Assembly: GCA_017397805.1 (NCBI GenBank)
Contig: JAFQHW010000008.1
Coordinates: 1-63,750, forward strand
Direction of reading: 5' to 3'
DNA length: 63,750 nucleotides
DNA from: Clostridia bacterium
Lineage (GTDB): Bacteria; Bacillota; Clostridia; Oscillospirales; CAG-382
Shown here: piece by piece, positions 11,466-28,608 of the stretch
Numbering within the stretch: position 1 is the first letter of the stretch
Layout: each line of letters starts with the position of its first letter
Notes under the pieces: generated by a model
What the model saw: only the letters and a program-made list of their open reading frames with translations
Database searches by the model: none
Told to the model about the DNA's origin: nothing
Made by a program: the position numbers and the translations under genes

Positions 11466-12026
11466 TTATTCGGTTTGTTGTGGGGCGGAATCGTCTTCGT
11501 CACATCCCCTGATAATTTTTACTAATGTTATTATTTCAGAGCTGAAAGCTAATACTACCAAGAGCATAAAAGTCAACAGTCCGTACCATTTACTGAAAAA
11601 GCTGTAAATAAAACTAATGATCCTTGCTTTATAAACGAACTTGCCAACTAATTGAGTTTCATCAATCTCCGGGTCATCCAAATAGCAGTTATTAATTCCC
11701 CTGGTGGTAAAATAATACGTTCCGTTTACAAGTTTTGGCTCTGAAACTATCTTGTGGGTTATAATTTTGCCCTTGAACGAATCTTCGCGCCCTAAGTATG
11801 AGATTGTGTCGCCTTTGCTTAAATTCTTAGGCTCGGTGGATTTTACTAATATGACGTCGCCAACGTTTAATTCGGGCTCCATGCTTGCGGAAGAAATCCG
11901 CAAAAAGCTGTAACCAAACAAGCTTGGTGTTTTTCCTGTAATGCGAGATGTCATCGTATAAATCAATACGAAAATGAAAGCAATTATTAATAAGGAGCCC
12001 AATACATATTTTACCTTCTTTGCCAT
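11466..12026 (-). CDS. sipW: SipW-type (ER/archaeal-like S26B) signal peptidase I
   Basis: N- and C-terminal TM; catalytic Ser in SSASMEP, GDVILV, His in IITHKI, TRGINN. Confidence 0.85.
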   Translation of the reverse strand: MAKKVKYVLGSLLIIAFIFVLIYTMTSRITGKTPSLFGYSFLRISSASMEPELNVGDVILVKSTEPKNLSKGDTISYLGREDSFKGKIITHKIVSEPKLVNGTYYFTTRGINNCYLDDPEIDETQLVGKFVYKARIISFIYSFFSKWYGLLTFMLLVVLAFSSEIITLVKIIRGCDEDDSAPQQTE

Positions 12027-12056: not shown

Positions 12057-12644
12057 TTAACCGTAAACTACGTTGAAGCTGTCAATGGTTACGGAACCTG
12101 CGGCAGTAAACTCAAGATACCAAATAATCTCTCTTGTGGCAGAAACCGTACTCGCTCCGTCGCCTTCGCCGACAACGGTAGCCGCGGGCACTTCAAACGT
12201 GTTGACTACAGGAATCCACCCTTGTGCAATTGCATCGGAAGTAACCTCAAAAAACTCCTTGGTAGGGGAGGTGACACCGATTTTAACGGAAGCACCGTCG
12301 GTTACCGAAATGCTCTTCAGTAATAACGATACGTTTGTGGCAACTGCATCGGAATTTGTCAATACGGTTTTAAAATACACAATTTGTCCTGCAACTGCAT
12401 TTGTTTCGGTGTGGCCGGTAATAGCTTCACTTGAATATGAAATCTCTTCTGTATCTGCATCCATAGTACCTAAATAAGTACCGGCATTAACGCTGTTTCC
12501 GTTAATTTGTGTACTGAAATTTAAGGTTAGATCGTTGCCTGATAAATCGGGACGGGTTGCCCATGAAAAGGTATTAATAGTTAAAGAGATAACCAAAACC
12601 AAAACAAGAACGAATTGCAAAAGTATAAAGCTAATCTTGTTCAT
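12057..12644 (-). CDS. Putative SipW-processed secreted protein (divergent TasA/pilin-like subunit)
   Basis: Hydrophobic signal ending NTFSW; beta-rich Thr/Ser/Val mature part; IIWYLE near C-terminus. Confidence 0.6.
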   Translation of the reverse strand: MNKISFILLQFVLVLVLVISLTINTFSWATRPDLSGNDLTLNFSTQINGNSVNAGTYLGTMDADTEEISYSSEAITGHTETNAVAGQIVYFKTVLTNSDAVATNVSLLLKSISVTDGASVKIGVTSPTKEFFEVTSDAIAQGWIPVVNTFEVPAATVVGEGDGASTVSATREIIWYLEFTAAGSVTIDSFNVVYG

Positions 12645-12679
12645 GGCGGTTACCTCCTTTCATAGAAATTTAATTTAAA

Positions 12680-13780
12680 TTATTGCCCCCAAGAACCGGT
12701 AGTAGCAGAATTGATTGTGTACGTTTTATTACTGCTTCTGTTATTAAGGGACCAAGAACCGGCACTGTCATCGCCGCTTACCGTCATAGAAAGCTCTTTT
12801 GCGGCTAAGGGAACTCTTACCGTCCAAGCCGAAACAGTGCTGTCATATGTGGCGCTGTAAGTATTATTTGTAGCCGTGTTTGTGATAGTAAATACCGTGT
12901 CAGTGCTATAGGTGTTTGTACTGTCAACGATCATAAGCGTTTGCTTGACACTGTCAGACCACGAGGACCACAAAGTTATGTTAAAATCAACATCGGCACC
13001 TACCGGTATGTTTCCGCACCTGCTATCCAGTGCTTCCAACCAAATCGAGCACGTAATTACCGTTGTTTCACCTTTTTTGCAGAAAAACAAACTGTTAACG
13101 TAGGTTTGGCTGTTTGCAATATCACTGTAGTCGGTACAAGCGTTGCTGCTTATGTTTGGTGTGCCGTCAGAGTTTACGCTACTTACTGCAGAAGTGTTGT
13201 CGGCACTGTAATCAAAGCTTACAGTTTGGCTTTTGTGTGTATCTGCGGCGTTGTCGTCACTAAAATGCACGCGAAACGCACCGATGTCCTCGGTAGAACC
13301 GTTAACGGAAATAATGGGAGCAGTTGTACTGAACCAAAAATTACAATCGGCATCGTCAGACTGAACTGCAAACTGAAAAGTTAATACAGAGGAATGCACC
13401 GTTTCAACGGGTAACTTTCTCCATTTTTGCCCGTCTTGCCCTGCAACACCTTCATATAGCGAATAGAAATTTTTACCGTCTGCGCTGGAAACGGGCGTAA
13501 ACTTAGTATTACTACCTGCCTCAAAATATTTGGTCAGGTCAATGGGCGTGCTTACGGTTACACCGTCTGTAGTGGTTTCGCCTAAACCTTCTCCTACCTT
13601 CACAACGGACATAAGTTGTGGAGCCGTACTGATATTCGAACCTGAAAGGGTTAGGGAAGTACCGCCCTCAAACCAAGCAAAGGTAGCCGAAATGGTGAAA
13701 AGCAATAGCTCAACAAGAGCAACCACGGACAAAACAATGCGAAGCTTGCCTTTGCCTATTAAATTGTTTTGCTTCGACAT
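12680..13780 (-). CDS. SipW-class secreted TasA/pilin-like subunit with extra C-terminal beta module
   Basis: Signal ending SATFAWF; PVSSADGKNFY; IWLEALDSRC motif; about 90-aa extension ending TGSWGQ. Confidence 0.7.
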   Translation of the reverse strand: MSKQNNLIGKGKLRIVLSVVALVELLLFTISATFAWFEGGTSLTLSGSNISTAPQLMSVVKVGEGLGETTTDGVTVSTPIDLTKYFEAGSNTKFTPVSSADGKNFYSLYEGVAGQDGQKWRKLPVETVHSSVLTFQFAVQSDDADCNFWFSTTAPIISVNGSTEDIGAFRVHFSDDNAADTHKSQTVSFDYSADNTSAVSSVNSDGTPNISSNACTDYSDIANSQTYVNSLFFCKKGETTVITCSIWLEALDSRCGNIPVGADVDFNITLWSSWSDSVKQTLMIVDSTNTYSTDTVFTITNTATNNTYSATYDSTVSAWTVRVPLAAKELSMTVSGDDSAGSWSLNNRSSNKTYTINSATTGSWGQ

Positions 13781-13835
13781 TGTCTTTCACCTCCGTTGGT
13801 GATGTGATGGGAATCAATAGTTATGCAGACAAAAG

Positions 13836-15347
13836 CTAAGCCAAATTAAGCGTTGTCCAAGCGCCAATAGGCGGATTTACAGTACTATTACCGCGATTTA
13901 GGAACGCATTGTATGAATTCCTGTTCGCTGTATCCCATGAGTGTAATCCATCATAAACACCATTTACATATCGTTTGAACATGAATTTTAATGTGGAATC
14001 TTTTCTAATCCTAACAACATAAGTATCTCTTGAAAGTGTATTTGTAATACTTTCGGAATAAGTCATCAAATAATTGGTATTTTTATAATTACCGTTTCCG
14101 TCTGTTAGGTAGTACGAAGTTGTAATGTCGGCGTTGTTAGCTCTAATCCATCCCAATCCCGTATAGTCAATAAAATAAATATCCATTGTTTGCATTCCGT
14201 CTTCCCAGATGCCACCGCTTAAGCCTTCACCAAGGGCATGATACTCAGCATCGACACCTAAAGCACCGGCATCCCATTGCATCACTGTGTTATTTGAAGA
14301 TGACTTCCTTACAAATTCTACGGACTCTGTAGTTTCAGGCAAATTAACGATCCACTTATGGTCGCTATCATATGTATCGGATTTTGTCATTTTGTAGTCA
14401 AAATTCGCATCCGGGTCATGTGCATACATTTCATAACCATCATCAGCGATCCAACTACCATACGTATCATCTATGAAATATATCGTTCTCATATTGCCTT
14501 TAAAGCCTGTTGAAAACTCAATGTTAATACCCAAGTCGTTTTTAGCATAAATTGTGTCCTTGCAATCCGCATCAGCGCCCTCAAGCCAAATTGTCAATGT
14601 TGCGTGTGCGACTTCGTTTGCGGAAAGGCTAAGCAAGTGATTATCTTCATCCTCGCTGACGAAATAATAATTACTTATAGCGTTTGCTGTTTGAGTATTT
14701 GTTGATTCGATTAACCCTTCATTGCTTACAGATGCAACGACGTTGTTCGTTACACTTTGACCAGTTTGAGAAGAATCAAAAACTATCGGAGTGCTACCAT
14801 CGTTGAAATCCAAAGAAACCCTCAATGCTGTAACAGCCGTTCCCGTAATTCTAGATTCCGAAGAAAACCAAACTTTTGTTTCTACATCGGAAGATAATGT
14901 AAAATCTACAGAAATATATTTATTATTTTTATCATTAGCAGTAGATTTTCGAAACAAAAAATCACCGGTATTAGCATCGTTATAATGCTCACCATTTCCC
15001 GTTAGGGTGCCGTTAGCGTAATTTTGTTCGGTAAACTCAGAAACAGGAAAAAAAACATTTCTACCGTCAACGCTGGTACATTCCGAAAGCATGGAACTAA
15101 CGTTGTTTACGGAAATAGGGGAGGTAAGGAATTTAACACCGTCATATCCCATCCGAAGGCCTTCGTCGGCGTGAATCTTTAATATATTTTCTGATGAAAT
15201 ATCAGTTGTTTTTTTGTTAAATAGCCACGAAAAGCTCTCATTATGAACGGTGGAAATTAACATAAGGAAGGCAACAAACAACCAAAAAGCACTTAAAGCA
15301 ATATTCTTTTTGGCGACAGAAACATTGCCTGCTTTTTTCACGTTCAT
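13836..15347 (-). CDS. SipW-class secreted subunit with two C-terminal aromatic-rich (CBM-like) modules
   Basis: Signal ending ESFSWL; CTSVDGRNVF; IWLEGADADC; repeats starting TIYFIDDTYGSW and DIYFIDYTGLGW. Confidence 0.7.
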   Translation of the reverse strand: MNVKKAGNVSVAKKNIALSAFWLFVAFLMLISTVHNESFSWLFNKKTTDISSENILKIHADEGLRMGYDGVKFLTSPISVNNVSSMLSECTSVDGRNVFFPVSEFTEQNYANGTLTGNGEHYNDANTGDFLFRKSTANDKNNKYISVDFTLSSDVETKVWFSSESRITGTAVTALRVSLDFNDGSTPIVFDSSQTGQSVTNNVVASVSNEGLIESTNTQTANAISNYYFVSEDEDNHLLSLSANEVAHATLTIWLEGADADCKDTIYAKNDLGINIEFSTGFKGNMRTIYFIDDTYGSWIADDGYEMYAHDPDANFDYKMTKSDTYDSDHKWIVNLPETTESVEFVRKSSSNNTVMQWDAGALGVDAEYHALGEGLSGGIWEDGMQTMDIYFIDYTGLGWIRANNADITTSYYLTDGNGNYKNTNYLMTYSESITNTLSRDTYVVRIRKDSTLKFMFKRYVNGVYDGLHSWDTANRNSYNAFLNRGNSTVNPPIGAWTTLNLA

Positions 15348-15374
15348 TCCTCCCTTCGTTGGTGTTTTATAGAA

Positions 15375-16367
15375 TTAAGCGTTTGTAGGTATAGCCACAA
15401 AGTTTAAAAGCAACTTATATTCACCGTTGGAAAGAGCCCTTCTGGCTTCGTTGTCACAACCGTCAAACCATATATTGATATGGGCGTTGCATGTGAAATA
15501 TCCGTTACCGTCAGGCGTATCAGCGGTTCCCAACTTCGTAGTAGCATCAGCAGGCGCCTTGTTGACATCTGCAGAGAATGCACCTGCAGACGATAAAGTG
15601 GTTTTTGCGTAAGAAACGGGGTTGTATGCAGAGTCGTAACAATAATGTGTTCTTGATGTGGTGCCAATAGTATCCGCGCCAACCCTTAAAGCGTAACTCT
15701 GCAAATTATTAGAAACGGTTAAAAAAACGTCAGGGCGTGGAATCCATATAAATTTCACATTATTAGATTCGTCAATAGCGGACATTCTAAGTGCACCAAC
15801 TATAGCATCCTTGGAAAAGTTGCCATACGAACTTGGGTTGTGTGTATCTTCACCCAATAAAACTTCCGGTGAAATAGCTCCGTCTGCTTTTACGATCTCA
15901 CAATTGGTAACAACTTTCGTTCCTGCAGCAATGTAAATATCGGCTGCTACCGAGGAACGGAAAGTGAGCGGTAAAGAAATATAATCAACGTTTTCAACAG
16001 CGTTTGACCAAGTTTTACTGCCGTCAACTTTTAATTCACCTATTTCTCCTGTAAAAGCGGGAATAAGTAAAGTTTTACCGTCGCCGCTTGTTAAATCTCT
16101 CATATCCAAATTTTCAAACATAGAATCGTTCAAAATGTCAATAGAGGAGTGGAATGTGTTGCCGCCGTCGATGGAAACTGCTAAAAAATCAGCAGTTTGC
16201 ATGGTCATACTGATGCCGCTGGCGGTAGCTTCTTTTTGGTCGGCAAACCAAGACCAAGCCGTACCGATCAAAAGTGAAATAATGGTAAAAATGAGCACAA
16301 CAAGTCTAAGAACAGCTTTAAACTGCTTCGTCTTGAATTTTTTGTTTAAAGACTTGGTGTTGTTCAT
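15375..16367 (-). CDS. SipW-class secreted TasA/pilin-like subunit
   Basis: Signal ending GTAWSWF; LTSGDGKTLL; IWFDGCD motif. Confidence 0.7.
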   Translation of the reverse strand: MNNTKSLNKKFKTKQFKAVLRLVVLIFTIISLLIGTAWSWFADQKEATASGISMTMQTADFLAVSIDGGNTFHSSIDILNDSMFENLDMRDLTSGDGKTLLIPAFTGEIGELKVDGSKTWSNAVENVDYISLPLTFRSSVAADIYIAAGTKVVTNCEIVKADGAISPEVLLGEDTHNPSSYGNFSKDAIVGALRMSAIDESNNVKFIWIPRPDVFLTVSNNLQSYALRVGADTIGTTSRTHYCYDSAYNPVSYAKTTLSSAGAFSADVNKAPADATTKLGTADTPDGNGYFTCNAHINIWFDGCDNEARRALSNGEYKLLLNFVAIPTNA

Positions 16368-16374
16368 TGTAATC

Positions 16375-18861
16375 TCACTTTTTCAAATAGTATAGAACCA
16401 GTTTGCCGGTGTCAGAATTGCGTTTAGAAAGGGAAGCGTCAATAAAAATGGGGTTCTCAAATCCAAACTCGCCCTTCAGCTTATTATAAAGTCTTTCCTT
16501 TAATTCAGCTGAAACACCTTGACATTCAACCAATACGAATGCCTTGTGAGCGGACATAAGCTTGCGCTTAGAGTCGTCTAATTCAGCCTCAACAGAATCA
16601 AGCAAAGACGCAAACGATTTTTTGATCTTGTTAGGGGAGTGGGAAGAAGAAATCAAGCAACATCCTTCGGATTCAACCGCTGCAAAACCACTGCATCCCG
16701 GTAAAAAGCCACCAAACATTTTTTCCACAAACTTTGAATTAGACTTATCTAATTTTAGCTGTGCCTTGGATGACTTCAGCTTCTCGTCATATTTGCTCTT
16801 GGCATCGTTTTCAGCCTGCTTAACGGCTTTAGACAGCTCCTGCTTAGCGCGTTTATTGGCAGCATCAAGCTTCTTTTCAAACTCTTTGTTTGCCTTGCTA
16901 ATAGCAGAAGCACTTGCGTTCTTTTCAGCTTCAATAAGCTTCGCCGTCTCTCGCTCGGAAGCCTCTTTTTGTTGTCTTAAACGCAAATCAGATACCTTTT
17001 GGAGTGCATCCAATTCGGTAACGTGCCTACTGTTGATTTCTGTGATCTTGTTTTCGTAATCTGACTTAACGTTATTAAGCTCGGCATCTTTCTCGGCTTT
17101 GATAGCTTCATATTGACGAGTAAAATCGTCACTCAAAGCTTGCTTTTCATCTGTGTGAGCCTTAATTAAAGCATTTTTCTCGTTAGAATGCTGCAATATG
17201 GTTGCCGCAAGAGAAGCTTCTGCTTCTGTAAGCTTCTGTCTAACCTCATTAAGAGTTTTATTCTTGCTTTCGATTTCGGAATCGCGTTCTGCAAGAGTGT
17301 TCTTGAGGATTCCAAGCTCTTCTGCGTTCTTATAAACCGTATCACGCAACTTCTCAACTTCCGCAGTCAAGCTTGCAATGCTGTTATTTGCATCAGCCAA
17401 CTTGGCGGATAGGGCAGTGTTCTCAGCCTTAAGAGTTGAAATTTCAGTCTTAAGATCGGCAACAGTATGTTGCAACTGCGAAATAGTATCCAAATGCTTG
17501 GAAATCTCAGCATCTTTAGCGGAGATAGCGCTCTGAAGTGCCTTGATCTGATTAGCTTGCTCGTCTATGGTAACCTTTTGTTCCTTTGCGATAGCCGCAA
17601 GCTCTTCCAGCTTTTCTACAAGGGTCTTCTTTTCCTTCTCTAACTCGAAAATCTCATCCTTCAGCTTCTGGATGGTCGTTTCGTGGAGGTTAATAAGACC
17701 CTTCATCTCCGTCATCTTGGTTTCATACTGACGAAGGGTGAATTTAGCGTGATTAAGCTGAGAGTTAAGCTCCGTAATCTGCTTCTCGCGTGAACGGATC
17801 TCCTCTAAGCGGATCTGTGTTTCTTCTTCGCGAACCTTGGCGATTTTGGCTTCGGTTTCAAGAATAATCTGTTCTTCGGGACGAAGTGATTCCTTCTCAA
17901 GTCTCGCGTTTTCCTCAAGATACTTTTCGTGAAGCATCTTTTCAAGGGCAGAGTTGGTAGCTATACTCAGAACAAAGTGTTCGTAAGACATTACGTTATA
18001 CAACGCGCTTTGAACACCTTCGGTCATTGCGCCGGAATACTCCTCGCCCACAATGTCGAAGCCCGTCTTCGTATAAGACTCAATAAACAGCCAAAGGTCA
18101 AGAGCCTTCTTGAAGTTGGGGTTCTTCGTCATCAAGTTAGTACGCTGAATAGGGGGGCGCACTAACTCTGCGCTGGCAAGATCACGTATAAGCGGCGATG
18201 CGGAAAAGTCACCCATTACACGGCGCAATCTTAAAATACGCTGATAATCCGACAGTGTTGAAACGTCGGCGTTAATATCAAAATCGCTGGATTCATGGGA
18301 CTCGTTAGCGTAGCTCAATTCAAAATCAAGCTTCTGCTCGTTGAGCGTGATACTTCTGCTTATCTGTACCTTGTGATAAGAATCGTTGGGCGCTTCCTTC
18401 ATCGCCTTGTAACGTTCGTCGACAAAGCGAGAAACGTTAAGCAAAAGAGTACGCAGAAAGCGATTCTCGTAAATAGCAAAGCTTTCTTCACGCTGAATAT
18501 CCAAAATGCGCTCAGGGGTAACGTTGTCACCCTCAACGCGGGCTATCAAGTTTGTGTGCTGTGCCAAATGACGAACGGATTCATTAGTTATCTTGCGCGC
18601 CTTTTCGATGGGAACAATGTCCTCGTTTTGGATAATGAATCGGCGCTGTTCACGGATGGCTTTATCGATGTAGGGAATAGCATCTTCAATCGCTTCAACC
18701 CAGTCCATGTCGATAACACGGCGATAGTTTTTACCGGAAAGCACGTCCTTACCGTCGTTGGCATCAGCCAAATGCCCGGAGATATAATTATGCGTAAAGT
18801 CCCCACGGAGAGTTTCTTGCATAAGCAAATATGCCCGATAATATTTATTAAAATCAGCCAT
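16375..18861 (-). CDS. DUF2357 (McrC N-terminal-like) domain protein with long coiled coil
   Basis: VRHLAQH, IYENRF and PPIQRTNLMTKNPNFKKALDLW segments typical of DUF2357; about 400 aa of heptad-rich E/K/A/L sequence; directly downstream of an McrB-like NTPase. Confidence 0.7.
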   Translation of the reverse strand: MADFNKYYRAYLLMQETLRGDFTHNYISGHLADANDGKDVLSGKNYRRVIDMDWVEAIEDAIPYIDKAIREQRRFIIQNEDIVPIEKARKITNESVRHLAQHTNLIARVEGDNVTPERILDIQREESFAIYENRFLRTLLLNVSRFVDERYKAMKEAPNDSYHKVQISRSITLNEQKLDFELSYANESHESSDFDINADVSTLSDYQRILRLRRVMGDFSASPLIRDLASAELVRPPIQRTNLMTKNPNFKKALDLWLFIESYTKTGFDIVGEEYSGAMTEGVQSALYNVMSYEHFVLSIATNSALEKMLHEKYLEENARLEKESLRPEEQIILETEAKIAKVREEETQIRLEEIRSREKQITELNSQLNHAKFTLRQYETKMTEMKGLINLHETTIQKLKDEIFELEKEKKTLVEKLEELAAIAKEQKVTIDEQANQIKALQSAISAKDAEISKHLDTISQLQHTVADLKTEISTLKAENTALSAKLADANNSIASLTAEVEKLRDTVYKNAEELGILKNTLAERDSEIESKNKTLNEVRQKLTEAEASLAATILQHSNEKNALIKAHTDEKQALSDDFTRQYEAIKAEKDAELNNVKSDYENKITEINSRHVTELDALQKVSDLRLRQQKEASERETAKLIEAEKNASASAISKANKEFEKKLDAANKRAKQELSKAVKQAENDAKSKYDEKLKSSKAQLKLDKSNSKFVEKMFGGFLPGCSGFAAVESEGCCLISSSHSPNKIKKSFASLLDSVEAELDDSKRKLMSAHKAFVLVECQGVSAELKERLYNKLKGEFGFENPIFIDASLSKRNSDTGKLVLYYLKK

Positions 18862-18892
18862 GGGGACACCTCGTTTCTAAAAAATAATCAAA

Positions 18893-20431
18893 TTAAACAA
18901 GTTTCTGCAGTCTTCTAAGATATTCTTTACACTCAAGCATGTTTTCTTCACCGAACAAGAAATCAAGATAGTCGCAAAGACCGTCGATCTCGTCACGAAT
19001 GAAGGAAAGGTTCAAGCTCTCGAACTTACGAAGTACTTTTCTTGCCAATACGTAGTCAAGACCTTCAAGCTCGGTACCGCCGCAACCAACGAAAGCGGGA
19101 ACGTATTCACGAAGCTGCTTAACGATACGGTTACCAAACGCCAATCTGAAGTGCTCGATAACGTAGTTGTCAAGCAGTTCGATCTTGTGCAAGTTTTCGT
19201 CGGAAACCTTGTGATGCTCTTTGCAGTAGTTGAGCATTTCTTCAAGGTGCTTGTAGGAAAGATTAAGAGGCTTGGTGTGGGGCGCATCGAAAGGAACACC
19301 CTTGGTATTAATGTCGATAGGCATTGCACGGTCATAAACCTTATCGGTGATAGCAAAGGTAGAGTCGTCGTTGTTTGCAGTACCGATATACCACATATTT
19401 TCGGGCAGATGCAATTTACCCATATCCAAGTGCTTGGGGTCGCTTTCCCAAACGTTGGGAACCAAGTCAACTATCCACTCATCGCGGGAAGGCATTTCCA
19501 GAATGGAAAGCATTTCTGCAAAGTAATACTCAACACGCGCGATATTCATTTCGTCCAAAATGGTGAGATAGATGTTTTCGTTATATGTAGCCTCGTACAT
19601 AGCGCGAAGCAACTCGGTTTCGTTATATCTCTTGGTAAATTCGTTGAAGTAGCCGAACAACTCGGAACGGTCTCTCCAAGAAGGCTGAATGGAAGTGATA
19701 ATAGCGTCGTTCTGCAAGAACTTACCGAATGCGTAGGGAAGGGAGGTCTTACCTGTACCGGAAATACCCTGCAAGATGATAAGTCTTGTGGAAGCAAAGG
19801 ATGCAAGGAACAGACGAATAATCTTTATATCGTAGTAAAGACCGAGCTCAGCACACGCGAAGTTGCGGAAGCGTTCGCAGATCTGAGGCAAAGTGATCTC
19901 GTTGTCGTAAACGGGGGGCTGATAATCTGCCCACTCGTTGTCGATCTTGGTAAGCTTGAAGAAACGGCTTTCACCCTCTTCGATGGGGGTATCCTGACCG
20001 TTAAGGGTTGCCATTTCATCGCCGGTAAGCTCAGCTATCTCGTTGGGGTTAAGACCTATTTGAGAAACCTTCATTGAAAGTATCTTGTCTTTCTCCAAGT
20101 TAAGGCGCATAACCTCGCGGTTGAGCGCGGTAACCTCGTCGATAAGATCGTTGGTGTTCTTAGCCTTTCTCTTGTAGCGAGCAAACTTTTTTAAGGACAC
20201 AACGATTATATAAACAAGCAAACCGAGAACGGCAAGTATTATAAGCATTGCGATAATCGCATATACCCACGCAAGTCCGCCCAACTCCGACGTGTGGGAG
20301 TCGATAATGTCAGCATAAGCAGAGAAGTTAAACATTTGTCCTATGCCAACGAATATATTGGAAAACGCCGTCCAGACTCCTCCAAGGAACTGACCGAAAA
20401 ACTCGTAGAAAAAGTTTAACATGCCATCCAT
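18893..20431 (-). CDS. Membrane-anchored McrB-like AAA+ NTPase
   Basis: Walker A GISGTGKT, IQPSWRDRSELFGYFN, Walker B ILDEMNIARVEYYFAEMLS, McrB signature GTANNDDST, KVYDRA; N-terminal TM helix followed by basic KKFARYKRK. Confidence 0.8.
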   Translation of the reverse strand: MDGMLNFFYEFFGQFLGGVWTAFSNIFVGIGQMFNFSAYADIIDSHTSELGGLAWVYAIIAMLIILAVLGLLVYIIVVSLKKFARYKRKAKNTNDLIDEVTALNREVMRLNLEKDKILSMKVSQIGLNPNEIAELTGDEMATLNGQDTPIEEGESRFFKLTKIDNEWADYQPPVYDNEITLPQICERFRNFACAELGLYYDIKIIRLFLASFASTRLIILQGISGTGKTSLPYAFGKFLQNDAIITSIQPSWRDRSELFGYFNEFTKRYNETELLRAMYEATYNENIYLTILDEMNIARVEYYFAEMLSILEMPSRDEWIVDLVPNVWESDPKHLDMGKLHLPENMWYIGTANNDDSTFAITDKVYDRAMPIDINTKGVPFDAPHTKPLNLSYKHLEEMLNYCKEHHKVSDENLHKIELLDNYVIEHFRLAFGNRIVKQLREYVPAFVGCGGTELEGLDYVLARKVLRKFESLNLSFIRDEIDGLCDYLDFLFGEENMLECKEYLRRLQKLV

Positions 20432-20600
20432 ATTGTTTGTCTCCTTTAAAATCTTATGTACTTAAAAAGATTTACCCGCGCGAAGTAAATCTTTTGTATG
20501 TTTGATAACAACCGGGGTAGCAACTTTTTGCTCTGCTGACGCAAAAAGCTTACTATCGATCGTTAATTAAAATCATACTAATCCTCAGTCTTATCGGGTT

Positions 20601-21410
20601 TTATTCCGATACAGACTCTTCAGGGTCATTGTCGCTTTCAGACACACTATCTTCAGCTTTGGTAATACCTTGGCTTTTTATATACTCCTCGGCTATTCTG
20701 CGCTTTTCTTCCTCGGAAAGCTCGCTTGTGCGCGCCTCCTCGGCTTCCATAACCGCCTTTTCGCGGTTATAGATGATAAGGTTTTTAACAACCCTATAGC
20801 CTTGGAATAAAACGAACAGTAACAAGGGAAGTATTATGCAGAGGAACATGCCTTTTTGGGACTGCAAAAAGTCCATAACCTTGCCAAGACCTGCGATACG
20901 GGTACCGTCATACTCGGCAATAATTTCTCTGGGACTCTTCAGGTTAACGTCTGCAATGGGGTTGTTAAGACCTTGGGTACGGTACTGAATGATACCGTTA
21001 CTGTCAATGACTTCAACAATACTGTGGATAACGAATATATCCAAGTCGGCAGCTTGACCGGGTTCGCACTCGTGATAACTGCCGTCCTCGTAAGCGATTA
21101 CGGGCATGGAGAACATAACCGTATCTCCAACCTCAAAATCCAAGTCGTCGTCCTCGTCAATAACCTCACAGATGACCATATCGCCCTTCTTGATGCCGTC
21201 CTCTACCAAATCGCCGTTCTTATCGTAAAGCTCCATAGAGTCCGTCTGAACGCTTCTTATGGTATAACCGAAAATTTGGGAGACGTTACCTTCCTTCTGG
21301 GTAAGCGCCATTATAAGCACTGCCGCAGAAAGCAAAACAAATATTACAAGAAAAACATCCAATACTACGTTTAGTATCTTTTTTGTTTTTTCTTTTGCCT
21401 TATCTGTCAT
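20601..21410 (-). CDS. sipW: Second SipW-type signal peptidase I with insertions and acidic C-terminal tail
   Basis: IFGYTIRSVQTDSM (Ser), KKGDMV, VIHSI (His), RTQGLNN, GLGKVMDFL, second TM, EEEKRRIAEEY tail. Confidence 0.75.
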   Translation of the reverse strand: MTDKAKEKTKKILNVVLDVFLVIFVLLSAAVLIMALTQKEGNVSQIFGYTIRSVQTDSMELYDKNGDLVEDGIKKGDMVICEVIDEDDDLDFEVGDTVMFSMPVIAYEDGSYHECEPGQAADLDIFVIHSIVEVIDSNGIIQYRTQGLNNPIADVNLKSPREIIAEYDGTRIAGLGKVMDFLQSQKGMFLCIILPLLLFVLFQGYRVVKNLIIYNREKAVMEAEEARTSELSEEEKRRIAEEYIKSQGITKAEDSVSESDNDPEESVSE

Positions 21411-21467
21411 AGGTAACGCCTCCCTTAAAATTTAATTGTTAATCAAAAAATGTAAAAATGTAATTAT

Positions 21468-22217
21468 TTACCCAACAAGCTCAAAACCGAGGCTTACATC
21501 GAAAGTAGAACCGGAATTAACGTTGGTGCACTGTGTATCCTGACCTTCAAACCATACGAATACATAGAAGCACTTTGCAACATCGTAGGTGTTTTGATAT
21601 GTTTCGCCTGTTGCATATTCAACTGTGGTTATAGAACTACCGTCTATAGGGCCATCCTGACCAAACTGAGCATATGTTTCTACACTGCTAGCGAAAATTG
21701 TAGAAGCGCCGTCAGCAGCAGCAATAGCAACTCTTTCATAACCTCTGCCACCGGTAACGGTAGGAGTAATCTTTAATTTTACGGACTCTGTAGTGTCAGC
21801 CTTAACCCAAATCTTTTTAACGATGTAATCGGTACCAGCATTAGCTGTATCTATGGGGTAATTAACTTTGTCGCCGTTGTAAATACCGTCAGCTCTGTCG
21901 GTTGTAGTAGTATAGAATGCACTGCTTGCACTGCCGGTGGGTTTACCGGAAACAGCTTTCATATTTTCTACATTGTCACTCCAAGTTATTTTAGAGCTAA
22001 AGCCGGTTGTAGGAGCTGTAGTGTTGGCCATGCTTTCATCCTCAACAATGTAAAGACCGGATGAAGTGGTAGCGGTAAGAGTAAGTTTTTCTGCAGATGC
22101 AGCATCGTTAGAAGAGAACCATGCGTAGGTTGCGCCGGAAAGAGCCATAACTGCTACGAGCAGCATAGCGATGGAAGAAACAAGAGTGCTTCTTCTGATT
22201 GCTGTGTGTTTAGACAT
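21468..22217 (-). CDS. SipW-class secreted TasA/pilin-like protein (candidate major subunit)
   Basis: ATG at 22217 with GGAGG RBS; signal ending SGATYAWF; VWFEGQDTQC motif; no extra domains. Confidence 0.75.
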   Translation of the reverse strand: MSKHTAIRRSTLVSSIAMLLVAVMALSGATYAWFSSNDAASAEKLTLTATTSSGLYIVEDESMANTTAPTTGFSSKITWSDNVENMKAVSGKPTGSASSAFYTTTTDRADGIYNGDKVNYPIDTANAGTDYIVKKIWVKADTTESVKLKITPTVTGGRGYERVAIAAADGASTIFASSVETYAQFGQDGPIDGSSITTVEYATGETYQNTYDVAKCFYVFVWFEGQDTQCTNVNSGSTFDVSLGFELVG

Positions 22218-22370
22218 AATTTTTTCCTCCATAAGAAAAATTTTTGAATTTTTCCGACTTTTATGTCGGTGCCTAATATGTACCGACATTCCGTCGGGGA
22301 GTTTTGCCAACCTTCCGTTGGCGGGGAATATAATCCAAATGCTTAAACGGGGAATAGGGGATAAGTGCTT

Positions 22371-23153
22371 TTACTCCTTGAGTTCAGCAGCCTCGAAGAG
22401 CATGGAAAGCCGCATATGACCGCCCATTATATCGTTTACGCATTGTGAATCCTCACCTTCAAACCAAATAACTACGGTGTATTTATCCGTGTCACCGGGT
22501 TTGAAATCTTCTTTCGTGCCCTCGAAAACAGTCTCTTCGTCAACAAAAGCAACCGTATTTTCTTCAGGCTCGTCGGTGCCCAACTGGGGTTTTGCATAAA
22601 TAGTAGGCTCACCGTTTTTATATACCATAATTCTTGCCGCTTCATCACAGCTCTTTGCCACACCGGTTACGATAAGGCTTGTATCGTAATCTATGGTCTC
22701 CGTGCCGTTGTTGCGGATATAGAAGGTATATGCAAAATAATCGTCGCCGTTATGACTGCCGTCGGTGTTGTCCAGGCTGTCAAGCACACCCGTTGACTCA
22801 AACCAATCGTAGGTATAGTGGTAAACGCGGTCGGCGTTCTCACCGCTTAAAACCACGCTCGTTTCCTTGAAGTCAGCCGTTTCGGAAAGGACTATGCCCT
22901 TACCTTCAAGGCTTCTGTCAACGGTTACGACCAAGTCACCAAACTGGGTGGAACAATAGGAAAGCAACCACAGTATGATAATAATAATCATAATGAATGC
23001 CATTATCCACATGGCACGCTTCTTCCTCTGCTTGGTTTTGTAAAGGCTTTCCGCATCACGCCTTGTTGCGCCGTGAGCGTTATTAATCTTACTCTCAAAC
23101 TTCTCCAAGTCTAACGGAGTGAAGACTTCTTCATTTTTATTCTTTTTTGCCAA
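22371..23153 (-). CDS. Membrane-anchored paralog of the TasA/pilin-like subunits
   Basis: Basic cytoplasmic N-terminus, single TM without T-x-A-W-F site, YFAYTFYIRNNG, IWFEGEDSQC. Confidence 0.65.
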   Translation of the reverse strand: MAKKNKNEEVFTPLDLEKFESKINNAHGATRRDAESLYKTKQRKKRAMWIMAFIMIIIIILWLLSYCSTQFGDLVVTVDRSLEGKGIVLSETADFKETSVVLSGENADRVYHYTYDWFESTGVLDSLDNTDGSHNGDDYFAYTFYIRNNGTETIDYDTSLIVTGVAKSCDEAARIMVYKNGEPTIYAKPQLGTDEPEENTVAFVDEETVFEGTKEDFKPGDTDKYTVVIWFEGEDSQCVNDIMGGHMRLSMLFEAAELKE

Positions 23154-23209
23154 TTTCTAATCTCACTCCCCATCATTTAATTTAAGCTTTGCGGTTGGGT
23201 TGGCTTAAA

Positions 23210-24031
23210 TCAGCTCAAGGGAACGTTGTTATCGTCTGTACCCTCAAAATTAAGCTTTACCTGAAGGTTGGCGCGCTGAACGTCGTCATCACACTCGGGG
23301 TCTTCGCCTTCGATCCAAATTCTTACGGTTACGTGCTTGGGGGTAAGTGCCGTAAGCTTGAAAAGTCTTGTGTTGTTGGAAAGCTCCATAGGGGTGGGCA
23401 AGTCAAAAGTGGTCTGGCCTGCAACTGCCGTGCCCTTGTTAGGCTCGTAGATAACCGTGGTTTCTTCTTCAACGTCCGTAAAGCTTATTCTCGCACATCT
23501 GATTATATCAGCCTGACCGCCGGTGCTGGAGGTGGTAACCGCCGTACCGTCGTTCATACCGGGCTTACTGTCGGTAGAGGTCAGGTGCACCCACATATCC
23601 TCGGAGCTGATAAGATACATATCAAATTGCAAAAAGCTTCTGTTGTTTTCGTCACGCTGTACGCCGCTTTCGGTATAGAATACCTTACCGTCAGCGGAAG
23701 TAAGAGGGTCAAGCACCATATCGGCAAGGCTTGCATCGTATGCATCAAGCTGTGCGTTTATATCCTCGTTGGTAAGCGTGCTGCTGTACAACGAAAGATC
23801 GTCACCGTGATCCTCGCCCGCTATAAGCAACTGAACACCGGAGCCTATTGATATATCCATATTATTAACGGAAGAGAAGTCAGACATGGTGAACCACGCA
23901 AAAGTGGTACCAACCATGGAAATTATTAAAAGCACGAGCAATAATAACGAAAGCTTCGCCTTCGTTTTCTTCTCCTGCTTGTACTCCGTATTCACGTTGT
24001 TCTGCTCCGTTACATTAAGCTTTGTGTTCAT
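23210..24031 (-). CDS. SipW-class secreted TasA/pilin-like subunit (first gene of operon)
   Basis: Signal ending GTTFAWF; LTSADGKVFY; IWIEGEDPEC. Confidence 0.75.
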   Translation of the reverse strand: MNTKLNVTEQNNVNTEYKQEKKTKAKLSLLLLVLLIISMVGTTFAWFTMSDFSSVNNMDISIGSGVQLLIAGEDHGDDLSLYSSTLTNEDINAQLDAYDASLADMVLDPLTSADGKVFYTESGVQRDENNRSFLQFDMYLISSEDMWVHLTSTDSKPGMNDGTAVTTSSTGGQADIIRCARISFTDVEEETTVIYEPNKGTAVAGQTTFDLPTPMELSNNTRLFKLTALTPKHVTVRIWIEGEDPECDDDVQRANLQVKLNFEGTDDNNVPLS

Positions 24032-24144: not shown

Positions 24145-24173
24145 ATTATATAATTATGACGAGGATTTGTCAA
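24145..24173 (-). promoter_or_regulatory. Consensus sigma-A promoter for leftward SipW operon
   Basis: TTGACA-17-TATAAT on the minus strand. Confidence 0.7.
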
Positions 24174-24284: not shown

Positions 24285-24313
24285 TTGACAATTTAGTTAA
24301 TTAATGGCATAAT
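24285..24313 (+). promoter_or_regulatory. Sigma-A promoter with extended -10 for divergent SipW substrate
   Basis: TTGACA-17-CATAAT preceded by TG. Confidence 0.6.
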
Positions 24314-24445: not shown

Positions 24446-25348
24446 ATGAAAAAGAGAATGTTTAAGATCACGGCTTTAATACTCTCTGCTGTTCTGCTGG
24501 TTACCGGTACCTTCTACTTTACCTTGGCATACTTGCAGGCAAAATCCAACCCCGTAGTAAATACCTTTACTGCAGGTAAGATTAATCTTACTCTCAAAGA
24601 GTCTGAAGTTGATGAATACGGTAATGTTAAGTATTATGCTGATGATGCGTTTATTACCGGTTCGCCCAATGAGAGTGCAGTGGAGGGGACTGACTACAAG
24701 CTTGTTAATAGTGATACTTATACAAAGGTGAACCTTGTAGAAAAGAACAATTACAAATTGGTTCCCGGCGAAACTTATACCAAGAATCCTGTTGTAACCG
24801 TTGCTGCTAATAGCGAACCTTGTTTTTTGTATCTTGCTGTGTACAACGGTCTGAACGACAGCCAGATAATGGATGTTAGTGATTATAGTCCTGTAAAAAT
24901 TGAAGACGATAGTAATACTATTCATTCCCAGCTTCTAGCCAATGGTTGGCAGATTCTCACTGCAAGCGATGGGCTAGCAGGTGTTTCTTGGAATGGTGCA
25001 CCTAAGAGGAGTGATTTTACCGTTTATTACTATCACAGTAGCACCTCTAATAGTTATATAGTCAATACTTCTAATGATCCGCAAACTTTTGGTACGTTCA
25101 ATAGTTTTAAGATTGACGAATCAGCTTCCAATGGTCAAATTTTATCGCTTGAAACTATGTATGATGCATCCGGAGAACCGACAGCTGATTTTCTTGCGTA
25201 TGCCGCAATTATTGAAGTCTATGCTTTTGCTGTACAAAGCACAGGTTTTACAAACATTAGTACGGGCGATATCGATGCGGTTAGAAATGCTTGGAATGCA
25301 ACATTCGGTGCTTCCGGCGGAACAACAAATGCTGTTGTTGAGGAGTAG
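24446..25348 (+). CDS. SipW-dependent-type signal peptide protein (camelysin/TasA-like)
   Basis: TLAYLQAKSNPVVNTFTAGKINLTLKE is the classic SipW-cognate N-terminus; LVPGETYTKNPVVTV; AFAVQ near C-terminus. Confidence 0.8.
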   Translation: MKKRMFKITALILSAVLLVTGTFYFTLAYLQAKSNPVVNTFTAGKINLTLKESEVDEYGNVKYYADDAFITGSPNESAVEGTDYKLVNSDTYTKVNLVEKNNYKLVPGETYTKNPVVTVAANSEPCFLYLAVYNGLNDSQIMDVSDYSPVKIEDDSNTIHSQLLANGWQILTASDGLAGVSWNGAPKRSDFTVYYYHSSTSNSYIVNTSNDPQTFGTFNSFKIDESASNGQILSLETMYDASGEPTADFLAYAAIIEVYAFAVQSTGFTNISTGDIDAVRNAWNATFGASGGTTNAVVEE

Positions 25349-25635: not shown

Positions 25636-26400
25636 ATGGATAAGCAAGAAAAGAACAATGGCGAATATTATTCGATTGATTTGCTGCATATAGTGAAAAC
25701 GTTGTGGAAGCGTGCGTGGGTTATTATCCTTGCAGGCTTTATTGCTGCTACAATCGGCTTTTCTTATTCCAATTTTGCGATTGAGCCAACATATTCTTCT
25801 ACGATTTTATTGTACGTTAATAACAGTTCTTTTTCCTTGGGTAACACAAGCTTTAGCATCAGCTCTTCGGAGATAACGGCTGCACAAAGCCTGGTTAACA
25901 CCTACGGTGAGATACTTGATAACCGCACCACGCTTGAAAGGGTTATTGACAAGGCGGGTGTTTCCTATTCTTATCAGGACCTTTCCGAGAAAATAGAATC
26001 CTCTCCTTCAAACGAAACTGAAATAATGAAGGTTACCGTTACTACAAACGACCCATATGAGGCGTCTAAAATTGCTAATTGCATAGCCGAGGTTTTGCCG
26101 GTTCGTATTTCTGAAATTATCGACGGTGCTTCCATGGCGGTTGTTGACTCTGCGGTGCCTGTTTTGGAAAAGGTGGCGCCAAGTGTCACAAAATACACAG
26201 CCGTAGCCATGATACTTGGCCTTTTGCTTGCTGTCGTTGTTTTGGTTGTGCTTGCAATTATGGATGATACTATCCATGACGAGGAGTACGTGCTTAAAAC
26301 ATACGATTATCCTATCTTGGCAAAGGTTCCCGACCTTTATGACGGTGGTAGTAAGCAGTATGGCTATTATTATCAGAAACACAAGAAGGCGAATAATTAG
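25636..26400 (+). CDS. cpsC: Wzz/CpsC-type polysaccharide co-polymerase, BY-kinase activator
   Basis: IDLLHIVKTLWKR, PTYSST, two TM, DDTIHDEE...PILAKVP. Confidence 0.85.
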   Translation: MDKQEKNNGEYYSIDLLHIVKTLWKRAWVIILAGFIAATIGFSYSNFAIEPTYSSTILLYVNNSSFSLGNTSFSISSSEITAAQSLVNTYGEILDNRTTLERVIDKAGVSYSYQDLSEKIESSPSNETEIMKVTVTTNDPYEASKIANCIAEVLPVRISEIIDGASMAVVDSAVPVLEKVAPSVTKYTAVAMILGLLLAVVVLVVLAIMDDTIHDEEYVLKTYDYPILAKVPDLYDGGSKQYGYYYQKHKKANN

Positions 26401-26414
26401 AGAAAGGTTGCGGT

Positions 26415-27185
26415 TTGTTTATGGGATTATTTCATAAAAAGTCTAATCATGTCGCCTTTACCGGCGATGAGGACAAAAACAAGTTGCATAAAAACCTTGC
26501 GTTCACTGCAACCGAACAGTATAAATTATTAAGAGCCAACTTAGACTTTACTCTACCCGAAAACGAGAAGTGTCCTGTTATTGGTGTGACCAGTTCAATG
26601 CGTGGCGAAGGTAAGAGTACTACGGCCATTAATTTGTCTTACGTGCTTGCCGAAAGAGGCAGCAAAGTTCTGCTTATTGACGGCGACCTCAGAATACCTA
26701 CGGTCGCTAAGAAAATGGGTATAAAAGCAACCCACGGCCTTACCGATTTGCTCATCGGTAACGGTGCCCAGCTTTCCGAGTATCAGTCTGAGCAATTAAA
26801 AAATTGGTTCATTATACCTTCCGGTAAAATACCGCCCAATCCCTCCGAGCTGTTGGGTTCAAGCCGTATGGGCAGTATTTTGAGCAAGTTGAAGGAGTCG
26901 TTTGATTATATAATTATCGACTTGCCGCCTGTAAACATTGTTTCCGATGCTTTATCCGTAGCTAACAATATAACCGGTATGTTGGTTGTTATACGTGAGG
27001 ATTATACGGAGAAAAAGGAACTGGAGCGTTGCTTCAGACATTTGAAGCTTTCTAACGTGAGAGTTTTAGGTTGCGTTATGAACGAGTCTAAAAGCGGTAG
27101 CTCTACCTACAAAAAGTATAAGAAGTACAGATATTACAAGCGTTATTATACTTACGAAGGTGCATACGGCGAATATAAATCATGA
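26415..27185 (+). CDS. cpsD: BY-kinase (CpsD/CapB/EpsB tyrosine kinase)
   Basis: EQYKLLRAN, GEGKST, LLIDGDLRIP, PPNPSELL, IIIDLPP, C-terminal Tyr cluster. Confidence 0.9.
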   Translation: MFMGLFHKKSNHVAFTGDEDKNKLHKNLAFTATEQYKLLRANLDFTLPENEKCPVIGVTSSMRGEGKSTTAINLSYVLAERGSKVLLIDGDLRIPTVAKKMGIKATHGLTDLLIGNGAQLSEYQSEQLKNWFIIPSGKIPPNPSELLGSSRMGSILSKLKESFDYIIIDLPPVNIVSDALSVANNITGMLVVIREDYTEKKELERCFRHLKLSNVRVLGCVMNESKSGSSTYKKYKKYRYYKRYYTYEGAYGEYKS

Positions 27186-27877
27186 TAGATTGGCACACAC
27201 ATATATTGCCGCAGCTTGACGACGGCAGTAAAAGCGTTAAGGAAAGCGTTTTGCTTATTAACGACTTGCAGAGTCAGGGCGTTGATACGATAATTGCTAC
27301 TCCGCACTTCTATGCCAACGACGGAGACGTCAGCAGTTTTATAAAAAGGCGTAACGGTTCCTTTGCTAAATTGCAAAACGCTAATAATAGCGACGTAAGA
27401 TTGTTGCTTGGCGCCGAGGTTAGATATTATCCGGGCATAAGCCGTTTAGAAGACCTTGATAAGTTGCAAATAGATGATAGCGGTCTGCTTTTGTTGGAAA
27501 TGCCTACGGCTAAGTGGACGGAGTATATGCTCCATGAGCTTGAGCAGCTGGCATTGCTCCCAAATCTTAAGATCGTTATGGCGCATGTCGATAGGTATTT
27601 AAAAATTCAGCCATTTCAAGTCTTTGAGCGCCTTATTGAAAGCGGTATTCTTATGCAGGCGAATGCTGAGTTTTTTATAGATTTTTTCAGTAAACGCAAG
27701 GCTTTGCAGTTGCTGCAAAACGGTTTTATCAGGTTTTTGGGTTCGGATTGCCATGGGATTAAGATTCGACCGCCCGTTATCGGTAAAGCTTTTGGAGTAA
27801 TTGAGAATAAACTGGGAACAGATTTTGTTAACTATTTCAATGAGTATGGACGTTACATGCTCAAGTTAAATAAATAA
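27182..27877 (+). CDS. cpsB: PHP-family tyrosine phosphatase (CpsB/CapC)
   Basis: MIDWHTHILP.LDDG, IATPH, GAEV, AHVDRY, GSDCH. Confidence 0.9.
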   Translation: MIDWHTHILPQLDDGSKSVKESVLLINDLQSQGVDTIIATPHFYANDGDVSSFIKRRNGSFAKLQNANNSDVRLLLGAEVRYYPGISRLEDLDKLQIDDSGLLLLEMPTAKWTEYMLHELEQLALLPNLKIVMAHVDRYLKIQPFQVFERLIESGILMQANAEFFIDFFSKRKALQLLQNGFIRFLGSDCHGIKIRPPVIGKAFGVIENKLGTDFVNYFNEYGRYMLKLNK

Positions 27878-27900
27878 TATTGAATGAGAGGTTCAACGAG

Positions 27901-28575: not shown

Positions 28576-28608
28576 TTAAAGATTCAACATAAATGAAAGG
28601 GCAACGAT

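Follow-up and report, generated by a model that had tools for sequence, protein, structure and literature searches.

A nuclease-free McrC-like protein with a two-part coiled-coil rod in a predicted CoCoPALM operon of a Clostridia bacterium

The PD-(D/E)xK nuclease domain of canonical McrC has two tasks, DNA cleavage and dimerisation, the latter joining two rings. In the SipW-TasA/TapA systems of Bacillus, an archaeal-type signal peptidase is encoded beside exported proteins with matching signals, and these proteins polymerise outside the cell. A matrix-fibre operon with SipW and BsaA is described for Clostridium perfringens in a figure legend of PMC11580942. As stated in the introduction of PMC11090510, McrC inserts into the McrB hexamer and stimulates its hydrolysis. 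The same paper (Bell et al., eLife 2024) reports on a large NxD clade of McrB-like GTPases, including a class named CoCoPALM whose members usually carry coiled coils on the McrB and McrC homologues, and whose further study was deferred to a later publication. Supplementary file 2 of that paper gives HHpred E = 1.2 for the FtsB-like assignment and 8.1e-8 for a SipA-like peptidase (4N31_A), and its text and supplementary tables, in the parts available, contain no mention of DegV, TasA or SipW. Here we describe a locus in a stretch of 63,750 nucleotides (nt) of a Clostridia bacterium (contig JAFQHW010000008.1 of assembly GCA_017397805.1; hereafter, the window). It encodes a McrC-like protein of 828 amino acids (aa), P0001, directly after a McrB-like nucleoside triphosphatase (NTPase) of 512 aa, P0002. 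Since all of the testable defining features of the class were found, we assign the locus to CoCoPALM with high confidence. The parts of the pair are as follows.

16375 to 18861, minus strand: gene for P0001, McrC-like protein of 828 aa, with a DUF2357 head, a composite coiled-coil rod and a DegV-remnant end domain, and no nuclease
17962 to 18861, minus strand: DUF2357/McrC N-terminal head of P0001, residues 1 to about 300 (Pfam PF09823, VIA-align, AlphaFold2)
17212 to 17814, minus strand: canonical heptad coiled coil of P0001, residues about 350 to 550 (register and period analysis)
16732 to 17211, minus strand: charged helical segment of P0001 with an 11-residue (hendecad) period, residues about 551 to 710 (period analysis, self-identity)
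16378 to 16731, minus strand: small alpha/beta domain of P0001 (b-a-b-a-b-b), residues 711 to 828 (AlphaFold2, VIA-align, hhalign)
18893 to 20431, minus strand: gene for P0002, McrB-like AAA+ NTPase of 512 aa (PADLOC, NCBIfam, motif alignment, hydropathy)

The likeness to CoCoPALM, as far as the class is described in PMC11090510, comprises an NxD McrB-like NTPase with an N-terminal transmembrane (TM) and helical, coiled-coil ("FtsB-like") segment, a nuclease-free McrC homologue with a coiled coil, and associated genes of the signal-peptidase family, of which two SipW-like copies are present in the operon. Nothing observed here contradicts membership. Beyond what that paper describes, the locus has a heptad-then-hendecad rod, a DegV-type remnant and a WxEGxDxxC motif, and its peptidases score as SipW/archaeal-type, whereas the paper likens those of the class to the pilus factor SipA. 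Canonical McrC (E. coli, 6HZ4; Thermococcus gammatolerans, 6UT5) shares with P0001 the N-terminal DUF2357 domain and the position of its gene directly after that of a McrB-type NTPase, but in P0001 a coiled-coil rod of about 360 aa and the DegV remnant stand in place of the C-terminal PD-(D/E)xK nuclease. In P0002, a membrane anchor takes the position held in McrB by the DNA-reading domain, and the signature is NxD, not NxxD. The CoCoNuT systems (CnuB/CnuC), as presented in PMC11090510, resemble the locus in their NxD McrB-like clade, in their long coiled coils and in McrC homologues that often lack an active nuclease; they differ in being cytoplasmic, predicted defence systems with separate nucleases (HEPN and others) and RNA-binding domains. 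Tandem or associated nucleases of this kind were not found among the 11 genes of the present operon, which instead has the membrane anchor, the SipW genes and exported proteins.

The open reading frame (ORF) of P0001 starts with ATG, 7 nt downstream of a Shine-Dalgarno sequence GAGGTG. The original prediction, made from the sequence of the window, had read the N-terminal 300 aa or so as DUF2357-like on the basis of the motifs RHLAQH, YENRF, PPIQRTN and NPNFKKALDLW, and this reading was borne out. The motifs are located at residues 97, 131, 236 and 247, and they coincide with invariant columns (H98, L99, H102, Y131-E132-N133-R134, P237, T241, N242 and L256) of an alignment of 14 head-family members with 31-70% identity. 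A Pfam scan of full-length P0001 did not list DUF2357 and gave sub-threshold coiled-coil families alone; with residues 1-310 alone, DUF2357 (PF09823) was found at E = 1.9e-7 (31 bits versus a cut-off of 23.3), residues 75-161 corresponding to profile positions 106-194 of 251. The domain was also found in all 14 aligned members (best E 4.5e-13) and, at E <= 1e-6, in 46 of 71 distant cluster representatives of the head family.

An AlphaFold2 (AF2) model of residues 1-320, obtained with the 14-row alignment, has a mean predicted local distance difference test score (pLDDT) of 84; its fold is a bundle of helices from which several long beta-hairpins are formed in addition. The model was compared with 48,161 chains using VIA-align, a Foldseek-independent search in which a Z below 8 is not decisive by itself. 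The second and third ranks were occupied by the McrC chains 6hz4_M of E. coli (Z 6.8, 141 aligned residues, root mean square deviation (rmsd) 5.7) and 6ut5_G of T. gammatolerans (Z 6.8, 139 aligned residues, rmsd 7.0); these belong to the sole two solved McrC proteins, and their aligned lengths are the longest in the list. In the Foldseek list, 6hz4_M was at rank 22 with the highest probability of the list. Because the VIA-align result and the Pfam match point to the same family, we accept the head, on profile and model grounds, as a divergent DUF2357/McrC N-terminal domain. As the original prediction had also proposed, a McrC-type activator thus appears to be kept beside its NTPase. A complex prediction with two copies of the AAA+ part of the NTPase and the head scored 0.01 and gives no answer. 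A PADLOC scan of P0001 yielded nothing beyond coiled-coil noise. The PD-(D/E)xK nuclease family was absent from P0001 in the Pfam and fold searches and was found in none of the 71 head-family representatives.

Some relatives of the head have a different layout. In P0187 (652 aa), a DUF2357 head is joined to a C-terminal piece of AAA_15 and an OLD-type TOPRIM domain, so that this protein could be either a nuclease-bearing variant or an assembly chimera. In P0252 (838 aa) and P0259 (1200 aa), the head begins at about residues 450-490, behind a long N-terminal extension; the idea that these are McrB-McrC fusions was rejected, as their N-terminal parts have neither NTPase similarity nor an AAA+ family. 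The DUF2357 gene of a further locus (L089, 11589-13796) is split into ORFs of 141 and 586 aa, through either a frameshift or a sequencing error.

The gene for P0002 lies 31 nt upstream of that for P0001. Its product begins with a strongly hydrophobic TM helix at about residues 53-80, after which come a basic cluster (KKFARYKRKAK) and a helical linker extending to about residue 130. The Walker A (GISGTGKT, at 222), Walker B (LDEMN, at 292) and NNDD (at 353) motifs are invariant in 12 relatives; within the sequence G-T-A-N-N-D-D-S-T, this includes each of N353, N354, D355 and D356. Judged from the motif alignment, NNDD represents the McrB signature in its shortened, NxD form. The candidate defence family PDC-M26A of PADLOC matches P0002 at 3.7e-41, in the AAA+ core only (residues 195-318), and the McrB model of NCBIfam matches at 1.9e-6, far below the model cut-off. 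P0002 is apparently a competent NTPase and membrane-anchored.

About 400 aa of continuous heptads had been claimed for the region that follows the head. This holds for the first part only. Residues 350-550, approximately, form one unbroken heptad register (mean best-register score 0.565, against 0.35 +/- 0.023 in shuffles), and Fourier analysis of hydropathy over residues 350-550 gives a period of 3.5 with z = 12.2 versus shuffles. For residues 550-710, this period is not supported (z = -0.9), and a period of 3.67 (11/3) is found instead, with z = 4.8. In the same region, residue self-identity peaks at an offset of 11, and when the sequence is written in rows of eleven, an acidic position is followed by hydrophobic positions 1, 4/5 and 8, which we take to be the a/d-e/h pattern of hendecad coiled coils. 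We make no claim for this segment as an amphipathic helix on a lipid surface, as the a/d-e/h pattern fits a hendecad coil at least equally well. If the rod is a parallel coil at full extension, a rise of about 0.15 nm per residue would give it a length of roughly 50 nm. Both periodicities were detected in 16 of 68 partner proteins, the heptad part being first in 15 of these 16. Matches of the rod to SMC and Rad50 models concern the coil only and are far below the cut-offs (for example, 40 bits versus 567), and the ABC-type ATPase head that flanks the coil in SMC and Rad50 was not found in P0001.

The C-terminal 118 residues had been described as a short Cys-containing domain with no visible PD-(D/E)xK motif, and both observations stand. 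The four Cys are at positions 723, 734, 735 and 780; none of them is conserved across the family, and a metal site was rejected for this reason. The AF2 model of the domain has a mean pLDDT of 68 (about 85 over the folded core). Foldseek found no match to this model in the PDB at E <= 0.001. With VIA-align, DegV, FakB or the C-terminal part of FakA occupied 11 of the 13 top rows (Z 6.2-8.0), with the end domain placed on the C-terminal half of DegV; other top matches were OmpA-like and YjgF-like folds, and no PD-(D/E)xK chain was present among the 50 rows listed. Moreover, an alignment of 19 end domains, in which there is no invariant or near-invariant column, was compared by hhalign with a profile of nine DegV proteins drawn from genomes of the same family. 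The match (Prob 94.3%, E 9.8e-8) comprises the last approximately 90 aa of P0001 and DegV columns 199-286, ending at the common last strand.

Two relatives have retained more of a DegV module. P0018, which is 82% identical in the head, has a Pfam-significant DegV match (6e-9, profile positions 65-155) directly before the end domain, and in P0147 a complete DegV (5e-21) is accompanied by an additional end domain. Owing to these DegV modules and to the profile-profile alignment, the likeness goes beyond mere fold resemblance, and from profiles and models the end domain is best read as a remnant of the C-terminal subdomain of a DegV/FakB-type protein (PF02645). The complete two-domain fold is not present: the Pfam DegV model does not match P0001, and Pfam scans of the 19 end domains gave scattered matches at E >= 0.0013, with DegV in one of 19 at 0.089. 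As the lipid-binding N-terminal domain of DegV is absent, fatty-acid binding is unlikely to have been kept in P0001. A DegV gene was not found in the source genome, which is 88.7% complete. By an iterated hidden Markov model (HMM), the end domain was detected in 43 of the 232 homologues collected, all with a length of 450 aa or more.

Where the end domain is lacking, relatives still finish in a short conserved tail, either an aromatic strand ("FGFYFKKK"-like) or "KMFTxEELxxID" (examples of such tails are those of P0022, P0024, P0027, P0031; P0045, P0068, P0084 and P0097). The aromatic strand resembles the last strand of the DegV-type domain. In the 232 collected homologues, a biased sample, 52 tails are of the aromatic type, 61 of the FTxEEL type and 119 of other types.

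The pair is located in a minus-strand block of 11 genes that extends from 24031 to 11466 and is predicted to form one operon. Its other members are as follows.

20601 to 21410, minus strand: SipW-like signal peptidase A (NF046067 SipW, 3.8e-21; TIGR02228, 4e-11, below cut-off)
11466 to 12026, minus strand: SipW-like (archaeal-type) signal peptidase B (TIGR02228, 2.9e-21, 76 bits versus a cut-off of 51.85)
21468 to 24031, minus strand: three upstream membrane or exported proteins, predicted from sequence features and homologues in related loci (23210-24031, 22371-23153 and 21468-22310)
12057 to 16367, minus strand: four downstream exported proteins, predicted from sequence features (15375-16367, 13836-15347, 12680-13780 and 12057-12644)

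The catalytic Ser motif is present in the SipW/archaeal-type peptidases of the operon, and peptidase A has in addition a C-terminal TM helix and an acidic cytoplasmic tail. Each of the three upstream proteins has an N-terminal hydrophobic helix, with a motif of the A-W-F type in two of them, and a C-terminal W-x-E-G-x-D-x-x-C. The four downstream proteins have a like N-terminal signal, and three of them carry a C-terminal W-x-(E/D)-(G/A) motif. In most of the seven, the A-W-F type motif is found behind the hydrophobic helix and the W-x-E-G-x-D-x-x-C motif at the C-terminus. No Pfam or NCBIfam family was found for any of the seven. The nearest named cluster of the upstream proteins in the ESM Atlas is Peptidase_M73, of the camelysin/TasA type (0.90, 26% of members), a weak lead. 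It is on account of the SipW-type signals, the paired SipW genes and this one Atlas lead that we call these proteins candidate "fibre" subunits. Compared with the operons of SipW-TasA/TapA and SipW-BsaA, which are not known to have an NTPase, the present one has two peptidase paralogues and a McrBC-derived pair in mid-operon, and it gives no TasA/camelysin HMM match. Scans with Pfam, NCBIfam and PADLOC revealed no nuclease family in any of the 11 genes.

The C-terminal motif, which can be written W-[FLI]-E-G-x-D-x-x-C, is common to the exported and membrane proteins of the operon (12680-24031) and belongs to no known family; a metal site, a disulfide or strand exchange are possible roles.

The head family is a large one: it comprises 4,339 proteins at E <= 0.001 among 7,996 candidates, and 1,466 clusters at 50% identity. 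Within the family of the source bacterium the head was found in 24 of 101 genomes and 6 of 15 genera. SipW-like genes are present on both sides of the pair in 11 of 12 neighbourhoods from this family, the exception being L021; in L014 and L019, greedy ORF picking hid one member of the pair behind an ORF on the opposite strand, and the head frame of L014 was seen separately. A search of species-representative genomes with the NTPase alignment gave at least 605 relatives, of which the best 80 loci, with 58-79% identity, were kept. These are the nearest relatives, and therefore the counts that follow describe the branch of the present locus and not the whole class. The NTPase ORF is present in 79 of the 80 loci. 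A DUF2357-like ORF starts within 3 kb in all 62 loci that have at least 4 kb downstream. Of 62 loci with 3 kb or more of upstream sequence, 59 have a SipW-like gene on that side; of 56 with 9 kb or more of downstream sequence, 31 have one there. All 46 loci with at least 5 kb on both sides have both a SipW-like gene and a WxEGxDxxC protein. The related loci are labelled as Ruminococcus, Oscillospiraceae, Acutalibacteraceae, Christensenellaceae and metagenome-assembled genomes of Bacilli. Additionally, near-identical DNA was found in sheep and goat gut metagenomes from eight studies besides the possible source.

In two of the loci labelled Christensenellaceae (L093, 11870-13099; L115, 11725-13035), a long SipW-like gene (409-436 aa) lies between the NTPase and DUF2357 genes.

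Taken together, the data are best explained, with moderate confidence and by sequence and analogy, by a CoCoPALM operon in which a McrC-like head acts on a membrane-bound NTPase, a rod dimerises the McrC homologue, and the whole has a role in fibre assembly. P0001 probably works as a ring-inserting activator, like McrC: we infer, with moderate confidence, that its DUF2357 head fits into the cytoplasmic ring formed by P0002 and stimulates this NTPase to hydrolyse nucleotides, in the way that McrC acts on McrB. The heptad coil of about 200 aa and the hendecad coil of about 160 aa would replace the nuclease domain, and the rod would most plausibly dimerise P0001, with the result that NTPase rings are paired or spaced beneath the membrane. 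The end domain, a DegV/FakB vestige without catalytic residues, is probably a contact or capping module. The NTPase pair would most likely control or power the processing of SipW-processed surface proteins and their assembly into a fibre, rather than serve DNA restriction. The analysis shows the identities of the domains and the conservation of motifs and operon; binding, GTPase stimulation, dimerisation and the fibre role are, for P0001 and P0002, what we infer. The idea that the pair is a stand-alone variant of McrBC does not fit an NTPase that is anchored in the membrane and a pair that is fixed in an operon of SipW peptidases and exported proteins. A wider proposal, which we regard as possible but doubtful, is that CoCoPALM is a nucleotide-driven builder of SipW-processed surface fibres in single-membrane gut bacteria, with a restriction motor re-used as an export engine or gate, likened here to the hexameric ATPases of type IV pili, a rod that pairs two rings, and an eroded DegV lipid module that would point to an ancestral membrane link.

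Several observations weigh against this explanation. The head resembles the McrC fold only modestly, no match to the head model was found by Foldseek in the PDB at E <= 0.001, and the head-family profile found none among the PDB sequences at E <= 1. For the exported proteins, HMM searches gave no pilin or TasA family. A strong heptad signal was found in only 29 of 68 relatives and a hendecad signal in 28 of 68; in 62 related loci the length of the partner varies from 369 to 1269 aa (median 738), with two loci almost tailless; and the end domain is confined to the closest relatives, being present in 11 of the 62 loci. Since neither the length nor the periodicity of the rod is conserved, the core mechanism cannot depend on it. 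What stays constant is the head; the rod and the end domain are accessory and change fast. Moreover, the CoCoNuT relatives within the same McrB clade are predicted defence systems in PMC11090510. Beyond the naming paper and its preprint, we found no follow-up or experiment on CoCoPALM in the literature, and searches pairing McrB with SipW, McrC with DegV, and McrBC with pilus assembly and signal peptidase also gave no follow-up; one further paper mentions mcrBC merely as part of a strain genotype.

The predicted role of the CoCoNuTs leads to the main alternative, namely that the present locus is an anti-phage or anti-plasmid defence system, in which the McrB/McrC-like pair senses invasion and the SipW genes and exported proteins are a non-nuclease effector arm that changes the surface or membrane. 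The match of the NTPase to PDC-M26A, the patchy occurrence among genomes and genera of the family, the fast divergence of the partner tail and the OLD-type TOPRIM/AAA_15 stretch of P0187, one of 71 relatives, are all consistent with defence. The PADLOC match is restricted to the AAA+ core, however, searches of the operon yielded neither a nuclease nor HEPN nor any other known effector, and the flanks consist of housekeeping and capsule genes with no other defence gene seen. The gene order with SipW and exported proteins is constant even in distant loci, which is more to be expected of a structural machine than of a defence island with its shuffled genes, and we therefore consider a defence role unlikely. 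The nuclease itself might have been overlooked: if the C-terminal domain were a cryptic nuclease, P0001 would be a normal McrC whose linker happens to be long. A regular expression does pick out loose D...(D/E)xK strings, one of them inside the end domain, but the end-domain alignment has no invariant or near-invariant column, Pfam finds no nuclease family there, the b-a-b-a-b-b order of elements has its best structural matches in DegV/FakB, OmpA-like and YjgF-like proteins, and in the profile comparison the domain falls on the C-terminal part of DegV. This possibility, which the original prediction had named as one that would refute it, is hardly credible.

The remaining alternatives concern the rod. 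The original prediction had considered a shaft, ruler or scaffold, and a rod that sets a distance, such as that from the NTPase ring to another site, would agree with the single unbroken heptad register over about 200 aa and with the heptad-then-hendecad order of nearly all relatives having both signals. A ruler should not vary as widely in length as the partner does in the 62 loci, two of them almost tailless, and same-genus genomes have open frames of only 453-458 aa for the partner; most distant relatives, furthermore, lack both periodicities at the threshold used. A fixed ruler or shaft is thus very unlikely; the rod may still be a scaffold or a dimerising spacer. Alternatively, the pair might be a positioner linked to cell division or the cytoskeleton, with a filament-forming or ZapB/crescentin-like rod that places the export site. 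The rod has weak matches to ZapB, DivIC, crescentin-rod and SMC/Rad50 coiled coils, the annotation of a relative in one source reads "FtsZ-binding cell division protein ZapB", and the N-terminus of the NTPase has the FtsB-like assignment of PMC11090510. But none of these matches reaches its family cut-off, and all are of the sort that coiled-coil composition commonly gives; the FtsB assignment, in the supplementary file that holds it, is not significant either, and no division genes are present in the operon, which makes such a positioner most unlikely. Returning to the CoCoPALM operon with a role in fibre assembly, the observations of the original prediction were largely right, with one correction to the rod, and its interpretation was half right.

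If it is true that a McrB/McrC-like pair drives or gates fibre assembly, the locus would be a clear case of a DNA-restriction motor re-used at the cell surface, and it would represent an unknown route of surface-fibre assembly in abundant gut Clostridia and Bacilli; a related NTPase is present in at least 605 species-representative genomes. As a classification, the locus is ordinary, the class having already been named. What it adds is small: a rod in two parts and an end domain of DegV origin, neither of which we found in the literature searched. Together with the lack of a conserved catalytic residue, which is likewise absent from that literature, they suggest construct boundaries for biochemistry of the partner subunit.

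The region upstream of the operon contains a promoter-like site and a divergent gene.

24145 to 24173, minus strand: sigma-70-like promoter site TTGACA-17-TATAAT, 12 of 12 positions, intergenic and just upstream of the block

Promoter-like sites as a whole are no more numerous in the region than in shuffles, and therefore only its position and score speak for this one. The divergent gene (24446-25348, plus strand) has its own promoter-like site with 11 of 12 positions (24285-24313) and encodes a protein of 300 aa with an N-terminal signal followed by an "NTFTAGK" motif; no family was matched, and the product may be another exported protein of the locus. In one metatranscriptome run, 6% of the sampled words were found, with contigs 95-98% alike over 16357-16737, 17743-17895 and 20572-21410; these contigs come from a close relative, DNA carry-over is possible, and the uncovered parts prove nothing. 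Adjacent to the operon, at 25636-29604 on the plus strand, lies a capsule and cell-wall polymer cluster with a Wzz chain-length determinant, a tyrosine-kinase-type ATPase, a CpsB phosphatase and LytR-CpsA-Psr.

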